Of a stretch of DNA of 6,379 nt, positions 4,498-4,525 are shown in pieces. This DNA is from a virus (lineage: Duplodnaviria; Heunggongvirae; Uroviricota; Caudoviricetes): IMG/VR virus record IMGVR_UViG_2541047166_000019; one strand, 5' to 3'. The notes beneath the pieces were generated by a model. The model did not search any database. It was given only the letters and a program-made list of their open reading frames with translations, and was not told where the DNA came from. The translations under genes and the position numbers were made by a program. Positions within the stretch are counted from its first letter, which is position 1; each line of letters starts with the position of its first letter.

Positions 4498-4525
4498 ATG
4501 TTGATTACAAAAATGTAATCAACAT
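4498..4525. promoter_or_regulatory. 28-bp inverted repeat (12-bp arms, 4-bp AAAA centre), candidate operator for the downstream moron gene
   Basis: ATGTTGATTACA-AAAA-TGTAATCAACAT, with perfect arms. It lies just upstream of -10-like hexamers TATACT (4534..4539) and TATAAT (4552..4557) that have no good -35, as expected if a bound regulator occupies the -35 position. About 165 nt upstream of the ATG at 4690. Confidence 0.4.

Follow-up and report, generated by a model that had tools for sequence, protein, structure and literature searches.

The Escherichia coli proteins CusR and HprR (YedW/HypW) are closely related response regulators of the OmpR family. For the hiuH-hprR intergenic region, two papers give CATTACAAAATTGTAATG as the HprR/CusR (YedW) box, and a third reported that both proteins use the same recognition sequence and regulate hiuH and cusCFBA. 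Their published targets in K-12 amount to essentially one or two (cusCFBA and hiuH-msrPQ, with their own operons). A related arrangement is reported for a Legionella genomic island, on which a copper-responsive regulatory system activates one Icm/Dot effector (PMC6989116). The island resembles the locus described here in placing a horizontally acquired virulence-type gene under a copper-responsive system, but its regulators are reported to be island-encoded. For paa the cis-site alone travels, and control by host core regulators is predicted.

We analysed a stretch of 6,379 nucleotides, here called the window, that derives from a lambdoid prophage of EHEC/STEC. Positions 3830-5500 are 100% identical to O157:H7, O26, O103, O111 and other genomes, and at least 80% of this segment is present in 573 of 5426 complete E. 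coli genomes (paa in about 570). The gene of interest, paa, is Z2053 of EDL933 O-island 57, and encodes an AcfC-family periplasmic solute-binding-like protein with a signal peptide (Pfam SBP_bac_11, E = 5.5e-34). In Vibrio cholerae, acfC is a member of the ToxR/ToxT regulon. The V. cholerae locus encodes a protein of the homologous family (about 50% identity), yet its regulatory logic differs from that of paa, and a regex scan did not find the box discussed below at that locus. The gene order was taken from the annotation of an identical copy and from the open reading frame list, and the features that matter for the argument are as follows.

350-757, minus strand: DicA-like repressor gene (annotation of the identical copy and open reading frame list).
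After the DicA-like repressor gene: cro-like, YdaT-like and replication O/P-like genes (annotation or open reading frame list).
About 3096-3830, same strand as paa: DUF1627 pseudogene (annotation of the identical copy).
Between the DUF1627 pseudogene and the fimbrial pseudogene: a small hypothetical gene (annotation of the identical copy).
3996-4490, plus strand: remnant of a fimbrial-subunit pseudogene (PGAP, 3996-4529), abutting the paa module and outside the regulatory site.
About 4489-5505, plus strand: paa module (promoter, gene and terminator), shared with Escherichia plasmids.
4498-4525: perfect palindrome, 12+4+12 (repeat search, shuffles and folding), specific to the prophage allele.
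4504-4519: core dyad ATTACA-AAAA-TGTAAT (ATTACAAAAATGTAAT), predicted CusR/HprR box ('copper box'), from match and conservation.
4526-4533, plus strand: GTAAGGTT element, 6 bp after the box, putatively a third TGTAA-like half-site or a -35-proximal element.
4529-4534, plus strand: -35 position for the -10 at 4552; AGGTTT, matching TTGACA at one of six positions, effectively no -35.
4534-4539, plus strand: TATACT, first -10-like hexamer, probably unused and not conserved.
4552-4557, plus strand: TATAAT, likely -10, with a start predicted near 4563-4565 by analogy with hiuH and cusC.
4678-4683, plus strand: Shine-Dalgarno sequence AAGGAG of paa, read from the sequence and conserved in Escherichia alleles.
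4690-5448, plus strand: paa (adfO, acfC, Z2053), an open reading frame named 'AcfC family adhesin Paa' in RefSeq.
5455-5478, plus strand: terminator-like hairpin CGTCCTTCAGGACG with a T-rich tail after paa (sequence scan).
5784-5939: hokD (annotation of the identical copy).

The core dyad upstream of paa and the hiuH core ATTACAAAATTGTAAT are identical at 15 of 16 positions. Both are 6-4-6 dyads with the half-sites ATTACA/TGTAAT; the lone difference falls in the 4-bp spacer, which is AAAT in hiuH and AAAA in paa, and the flanking bases are C..G in hiuH and G..C in paa. By chance, an 18-mer with three or fewer mismatches is expected 0.01 times per window of like composition. The cusR-cusC box AAAATGACAATTTTGTCATTTT shares the 6-4-6 architecture, but has the half-sites ATGACA/TGTCAT and shares 12 of 16 positions with the hiuH box; a half-site pattern that covers both, AT(T/G)ACA / TGT(A/C)AT with 4-bp spacing, is present at 4504-4519.

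Similarity to hiuH extends to both sides of the box. The GTAAGGTT element lies exactly 6 bp after it in K-12 hiuH, in most paa alleles, in a plasmid copM-like promoter described below, and in the loci L171 and L234; the cusC box, which controls an efflux pump, is followed by GTCACCGG where the others have GTAAGGTT. Upstream, the 11-mer AAACAGCCTGG is found 3 bp from the box in K-12 hiuH and 2 bp from it in the paa allele of plasmid pE105-3. The layouts are AAACAGCCTGGTTC-box-GCTGCT-GTAAGGTT in K-12 hiuH, AAACAGCCTGGGT-box-CAATGT-GTAAGGTT in the pE105-3 allele and AAACAGGATGTTG-box-CAACAT-GTAAGGTT in the window. Further downstream, each of the 13 promoters aligned, hiuH and cusC among them, has a TAnnnT hexamer 48-49 bp from the start of the box: the distance is 48 bp in the window (TATAAT), and 49 bp in K-12 hiuH (TATCCT) and in cusC (TAAAGT). 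From this shared layout we conclude that the paa promoter very probably has common ancestry with the hiuH promoter. It differs from hiuH in lacking a divergent regulator gene on its left, in serving a mobile virulence-associated target, in its long leader and in the 12+12 palindrome that encloses the box.

The first-pass annotation had described that palindrome as an operator over the -35 region of the promoter of a moron that encodes a binding protein, and had taken the whole 28 bp as the functional unit. Its description of the repeat was accurate. A repeat search returned the perfect arms ATGTTGATTACA (4498-4509) and TGTAATCAACAT (4514-4525), of 12 nt each, 100% complementary and separated by the 4-nt spacer AAAA. 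Among 300 shuffles of the window that preserved dinucleotides, none yielded a perfect inverted repeat with arms of at least 12 and a loop of at most 10; the palindrome at 4498-4525 is not due to chance. The conserved unit is smaller and consists of the inner 6+4+6: the outer 6 bp of each arm vary among relatives without compensation. Compared with those relatives, the perfect 12+12 form is peculiar to the prophage allele, which differs from plasmid alleles such as pZ1323 by two or three point changes. When the repeat was sought across genomes, as the annotation had suggested, a 40-nt BLAST query placed it at a median of one place per genome and a maximum of two, with paa loci in all matches listed, a search that is insensitive to 16-bp boxes elsewhere in the genomes; the copies of the repeat do not make up an operator set. 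A second perfect palindrome, CCGATATGGGAATTCCCATATCGG (5568-5591; 12+12, the arms directly adjoining), follows the paa terminator ahead of the hokD region and is as improbable as the first, the shuffle test having counted two arms of at least 12 in the window.

The promoter itself conforms to what had been read from the sequence in two respects. The gene has the makings of a moron, with a promoter and a terminator of its own, and two -10-like hexamers, TATACT and TATAAT, are present with no -35; a promoter scan over 4490-4690 found no two-hexamer sigma-70 site. The first hexamer has TATGCT, TACACT, CATTTT or TATTTT as its counterpart in relatives. The supposed position over the -35 region did not stand up. 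If transcription starts about 7 nt after the -10 (4563-4565), the box would be centred near -52 and span about -60 to -45, with the full palindrome reaching from about -66 to -39; the core would then lie upstream of a weak -35 and keep a set distance to the -10, an arrangement shared with hiuH and cusC. A 5' untranslated region of about 125 nt is predicted for paa, while that of hiuH or cusC is about 25 nt long, and given this long leader there may be a promoter nearer to paa. The 11 supplementary files of the EDL933 Cappable-seq paper, queried for paa, acfC and promoter strings, contained nothing usable on paa start sites. Position 4573 of the window is polymorphic among prophage copies: TTGTTGACTTT, as in the window and in 18 contigs, creates a TTGACT hexamer, for which no matching -10 was found 17 bp downstream, and at least 21 contigs have TTGTTAACTTT. 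In one IMG/VR prophage copy (L136, about 7556-7640), foreign DNA resembling an IS end (TGAACCGCCCCGGGTTTCCTGGAGAG...) directly follows ...CTTCAATATG; the insertion separates the box from the -10 and would cut paa off from it.

We then compared the box across paa alleles. In ten Escherichia alleles ATTACAAAAATGTAATCAA is invariant, except for ATTGCA in E. albertii pEA50. More diverged promoters were recovered by searches anchored on the protein, and thus without bias toward the repeat: meta165 (87% amino acid identity) retains ATTACAAAAATGTAATCA and meta164 (86%) carries ATTACAACAATGTAATCA. A relaxed pattern scan of 1.36 Mb of collected loci yielded two more paa-like genes preceded by a box, one in Providencia alcalifaciens (CTTACAAAAATGTAAT; 67%) and the other in metagenome locus L171 (ATTACAAAACTGTAAT; 69%), along with about seven matches outside the paa, copM-like, hiuH and cusC promoters and the pre-selected viral contigs. 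Scanning viral contigs for the box together with GTAAGG added one more paa allele, L234, with ATGACAAAAATGTAAT; the other new matches there, which lay in G+C-rich sequence or in what looks like coding sequence, are probably due to chance.

In a six-way alignment the box is the best-conserved upstream block, above the -10 and the ribosome-binding site, and it remains so in meta164, meta165, L234, meta171 (69%) and Providencia (67%) despite largely diverged upstream sequence. Because this block is conserved best while the outer arms vary, we take the inner 6+4+6 dyad to be the selected element. Its variants are few: two spacer changes (ACAA and AAAC), one change of the outermost base (CTTACA) and, in L234, one T-to-G change that gives ATGACA, the cusC-type half-site. 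The sole change at an otherwise invariant box base is the ATTGCA of pEA50 (L086, 4019-4034), in which paa is split by an IS481-family element (4842-5939). Judged by sequence, the natural variants fit what the CusR/HprR box family tolerates. The box was not found at the E. albertii chromosomal, Citrobacter and Edwardsiella homologues of paa, so its link to paa is clade-specific. Three diverged paa lineages have another palindrome, TATCACTTAAATAAGTGATA and variants of it, 35-80 bp upstream of the box (L164, about 1165-1190; L090, about 3950-3975; L165, about 1225-1245); it is absent from the window.

The box belongs to paa rather than to the gene on its left. The PGAP call for the fimbrial pseudogene, 3996-4529, ends at the TAA at 4527-4529 and has the repeat within its last 10 codons. 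Intact fimbrial genes (L003 and L004), at about 86% identity, align over 4032-4488 only; homology stops at about 4488-4492, and these genes terminate otherwise, in ...KAGDYYAALRFKLDYE*. From about 4486-4504 onward, the window is 85-89% identical to the paa module of many Escherichia plasmids, the extent of the module being set by BLAST ends (4486/4504 to 5503/5508) against nine plasmid loci and by junction alignments. Since fimbrial homology stops and plasmid paa homology starts at this point, we assign the repeat to the paa promoter module and not to the fimbrial remnant. As read from these junctions, fusion of the module to the fimbrial fragment either preceded its capture by the phage or accompanied it.

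Several features of the module borders were recorded alongside. The PGAP call overshoots the real fimbrial homology by about 40 bp, into the paa promoter, and the remnant is the counterpart of the gene for the second subunit in a PapB-regulated chaperone-usher operon that is intact in L003 and L004. On its left (window about 4486-4497), the module adjoins at least five unrelated contexts, and in all of these the break falls 10-25 bp before the box, at about (A)ATACCAAAC; the contexts include the fimbrial remnant, a Tn3 tnpA fragment and an autotransporter flank. On the right, plasmid paa modules have about 245 bp after the terminator that are extra relative to the prophage, and plasmid RHB16 (L088, 5266-5300) continues after this extra with sequence similar to window 5505-5541, pointing to a short-repeat (TGTA) deletion after the paa terminator in the lineage of the prophage.

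From the match, the conservation and the common promoter geometry, we consider it likely that 4504-4519 is a CusR/HprR-type box and that paa is transcribed under copper/silver or oxidant stress. The gene is then probably switched on by host stress signals and not by a phage protein. We infer binding of the regulator, activation as the direction of regulation, the transcription start and the inducing signals from sequence comparison. In the scheme that we propose, Cu(I)/Ag(I) would act through CusS to phosphorylate CusR, and H2O2/HOCl through HprS to phosphorylate HprR; a dimer of the phosphorylated regulator would occupy the dyad (4504-4519), perhaps with assistance from the TGTAAG-like element (4525-4530), and recruit RNA polymerase to TATAAT at 4552-4557. 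The resulting paa transcript would have a leader of about 125 nt and terminate at 5455-5478. It had earlier been suggested that the promoter of the binding-protein gene is either repressor-controlled or activator-dependent; the latter idea is the one that conservation and the hiuH/cusC-like layout favour.

The module would contribute the cis-element only and draw its regulators from the host core genome, which would allow one and the same module to function in prophages, on plasmids and in other genera. Both regulators are nearly universal in the species, hprR being present in 5413 and cusR in 5334 of the 5426 complete E. coli genomes. In the neighbourhoods of the nine plasmid loci, L164, L165, L171 and L009, none of the regulator genes accompanied paa consistently. 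Because no regulator gene consistently travels with paa, we propose that the host supplies the regulator and the module the cis-site. K-12 does not have paa, and gSELEX with K-12 is therefore blind to it as a target. In the literature that we searched, the coverage of which was incomplete, we found no paper linking Paa, AdfO or AcfC to CusR, HprR or copper.

Published RNA-seq of EDL933 bears on the question indirectly. Z2053 had a log2 fold change of 2.43 in rumen content and 3.17 in rectum content at 6 h; in the same data, cusC (3.49) and cusF (4.03) were induced in rumen content and not in rectum content. The co-induction of Z2053 with cusC and cusF in rumen content is circumstantial support for CusR/HprR control. 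Its increase in rectum content, where cusC and cusF were not induced, means either that another input exists or that HprR alone acts there.

The same rectum response speaks for the alternative that some other regulator binds the dyad (another OmpR-family or HTH protein, or a plasmid-borne paralogue of the PcoR/SilR type) and that the match to CusR/HprR is coincidental or only at the level of the family. The conserved GTAAGGTT and the direct repeat TGTAAT/TGTAAG, spaced by 11 bp, would also suit other response regulators. We think this unlikely, in view of the 15/16 core match, the flanks shared with hiuH and a spacing between box and -10 that is that of both known targets; moreover, the natural ATGACA variant reproduces the cusC half-site. 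PcoR/SilR-type regulators would recognize the same box family, and their involvement would therefore be a variant of CusR/HprR-type control, not a true rival to it.

Part of the similarity to hiuH could reflect retained ancestry and not current function. In the extreme case, the box would be an inactive relic inherited from a hiuH-like promoter, and paa would now be transcribed from another promoter or by read-through. The homology to the hiuH promoter does extend past the box, the predicted leader is long and the region is AT-rich. A relic would not, however, be expected to keep the box, GTAAGGTT and the -10 at constant spacing while the rest of the upstream sequence diverges, as is seen in meta164, meta165, L171 and Providencia, and the one damaging base change sits in the allele whose gene is disrupted by an IS. 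We therefore regard loss of function as quite improbable.

It is very improbable that the repeat is a structural element, whether a hairpin or terminator in the transcript, the end of a mobile element or a coding accident at the end of the fimbrial pseudogene. Folding of the repeat region as single-stranded DNA predicts a strong hairpin (-10.7 kcal/mol, z = -6.1), but its outer arms change without compensation, which argues that the long stem is not selected. Nor does it qualify as an intrinsic terminator: the stem is A+T-rich, there is no T-run, none was called by the scan and the arms are not maintained. At least five contexts have the left breakpoint of the module 10-25 bp upstream, a clustering that might be expected of a mobile-element end or cassette boundary; the right ends, however, are shared plasmid backbone with no matching terminal repeat, and some lineages share sequence further upstream of the box. 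As to a coding origin, PGAP places the repeat in the pseudogene (frame ...DYKNVINM*), and identical 19-mers occur in unrelated phage genes encoding YYKNVIN, which we judge to be coincidence. Against this, the homology to fimbrial genes is over before the repeat begins, and truncated, non-coding contexts retain the element.

That the site is a phage operator or an FNR-like site, which it resembles as a palindrome upstream of a promoter with no -35, is scarcely credible: the wHTH protein of the DUF1627 gene (3096..3830), nearby on the same strand and proposed by the first-pass annotation as binder, comes from a pseudogene here (in-frame TAG at codon 18, 3147-3149; 'frameshifted' according to PGAP; longest intact ORF from 3249) and is missing wherever plasmids, Providencia or metagenome loci keep the box, the dicA/cro operator region (757-834) has repeats unlike the palindrome at 4498-4525, the full repeat is found once or twice per genome with no operator set and no intact phage binder, and the FNR-like TTGAT/ATCAA motifs of the outer arms, which are present and, as that annotation itself remarked, wrongly spaced, lie 14 bp apart with a left half that is not conserved, so that the resemblance is irrelevant.

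Sites for other regulators were considered by informal comparison with consensus sequences. The half-site spacing and the unconserved left half likewise eliminate FNR (TTGAT-N4-ATCAA) and CRP (TGTGA-N6-TCACA) sites as such. Sites for IHF, Fis, ArcA, CpxR, RstA, PhoP, PmrA, EvgA and NarL, and for TyrR, UvrY/GacA, ArgR, Zur, ModE and sigma-28, fail on spacing, orientation or conservation. By eye, the region is a poor match to the 19-bp Fur consensus; in published work with qRT-PCR and mutants, Fur did not regulate Paa (z2053).

If CusR/HprR-type control of paa holds, paa would be a third target of these regulators and would extend their regulon into the accessory genome; on sequence grounds the paa site is predicted to be a new, horizontally mobile target of a well-defined box. 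Exposure to copper/silver or HOCl/H2O2, from feed additives, host nutritional immunity or neutrophils, would be tied to the expression of a colonization factor, in a gene that is also carried on ETEC plasmids, and the phage would have brought in a moron with a cis-element only, reliant on the regulators of its host. A broader reading, which we put forward tentatively and regard as rather doubtful, is that paa/adfO and its relatives are a mobile 'plug-in' module, the CusR/HprR-type box of which lets the copper/oxidant two-component system of any Enterobacterales host switch paa on; that Paa might be primarily a periplasmic copper- or oxidant-stress protein, with its adhesion phenotypes secondary; and that its expression and spread in ETEC/EHEC might be driven by feed copper in pigs and cattle, or by neutrophil HOCl and copper in the inflamed gut.

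The role of Paa would in any case be worth re-examining, as a solute-binding-type periplasmic protein whose gene stands beside copper-handling genes on some plasmids. In plasmids pE105-3 and pSTEC299, paa lies directly downstream of a two-gene unit encoding a DUF305 protein and a YncE-like beta-propeller protein. The DUF305 protein matches the NCBIfam CopM metallochaperone model with E = 2e-21, scoring 75.7 bits where the cut-off is 90. Ahead of its gene there is a second box, ATGACAAAAATGTAAT (L090, 2131-2146, in pE105-3; L092, 2116-2131, in pSTEC299), with GTAAGGTT at +6 and TAAAAT at +48, about 230 bp upstream of the CopM-like DUF305 gene. By gene content, paa on pE105-3-type plasmids is in a copper-handling neighbourhood. 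The hybrid box ATGACAAAAATGTAAT is common to this DUF305 promoter and to the L234 paa allele, and the ATGACA half-site of cusC is thereby present in one paa allele and in the copM-like promoter that neighbours paa.
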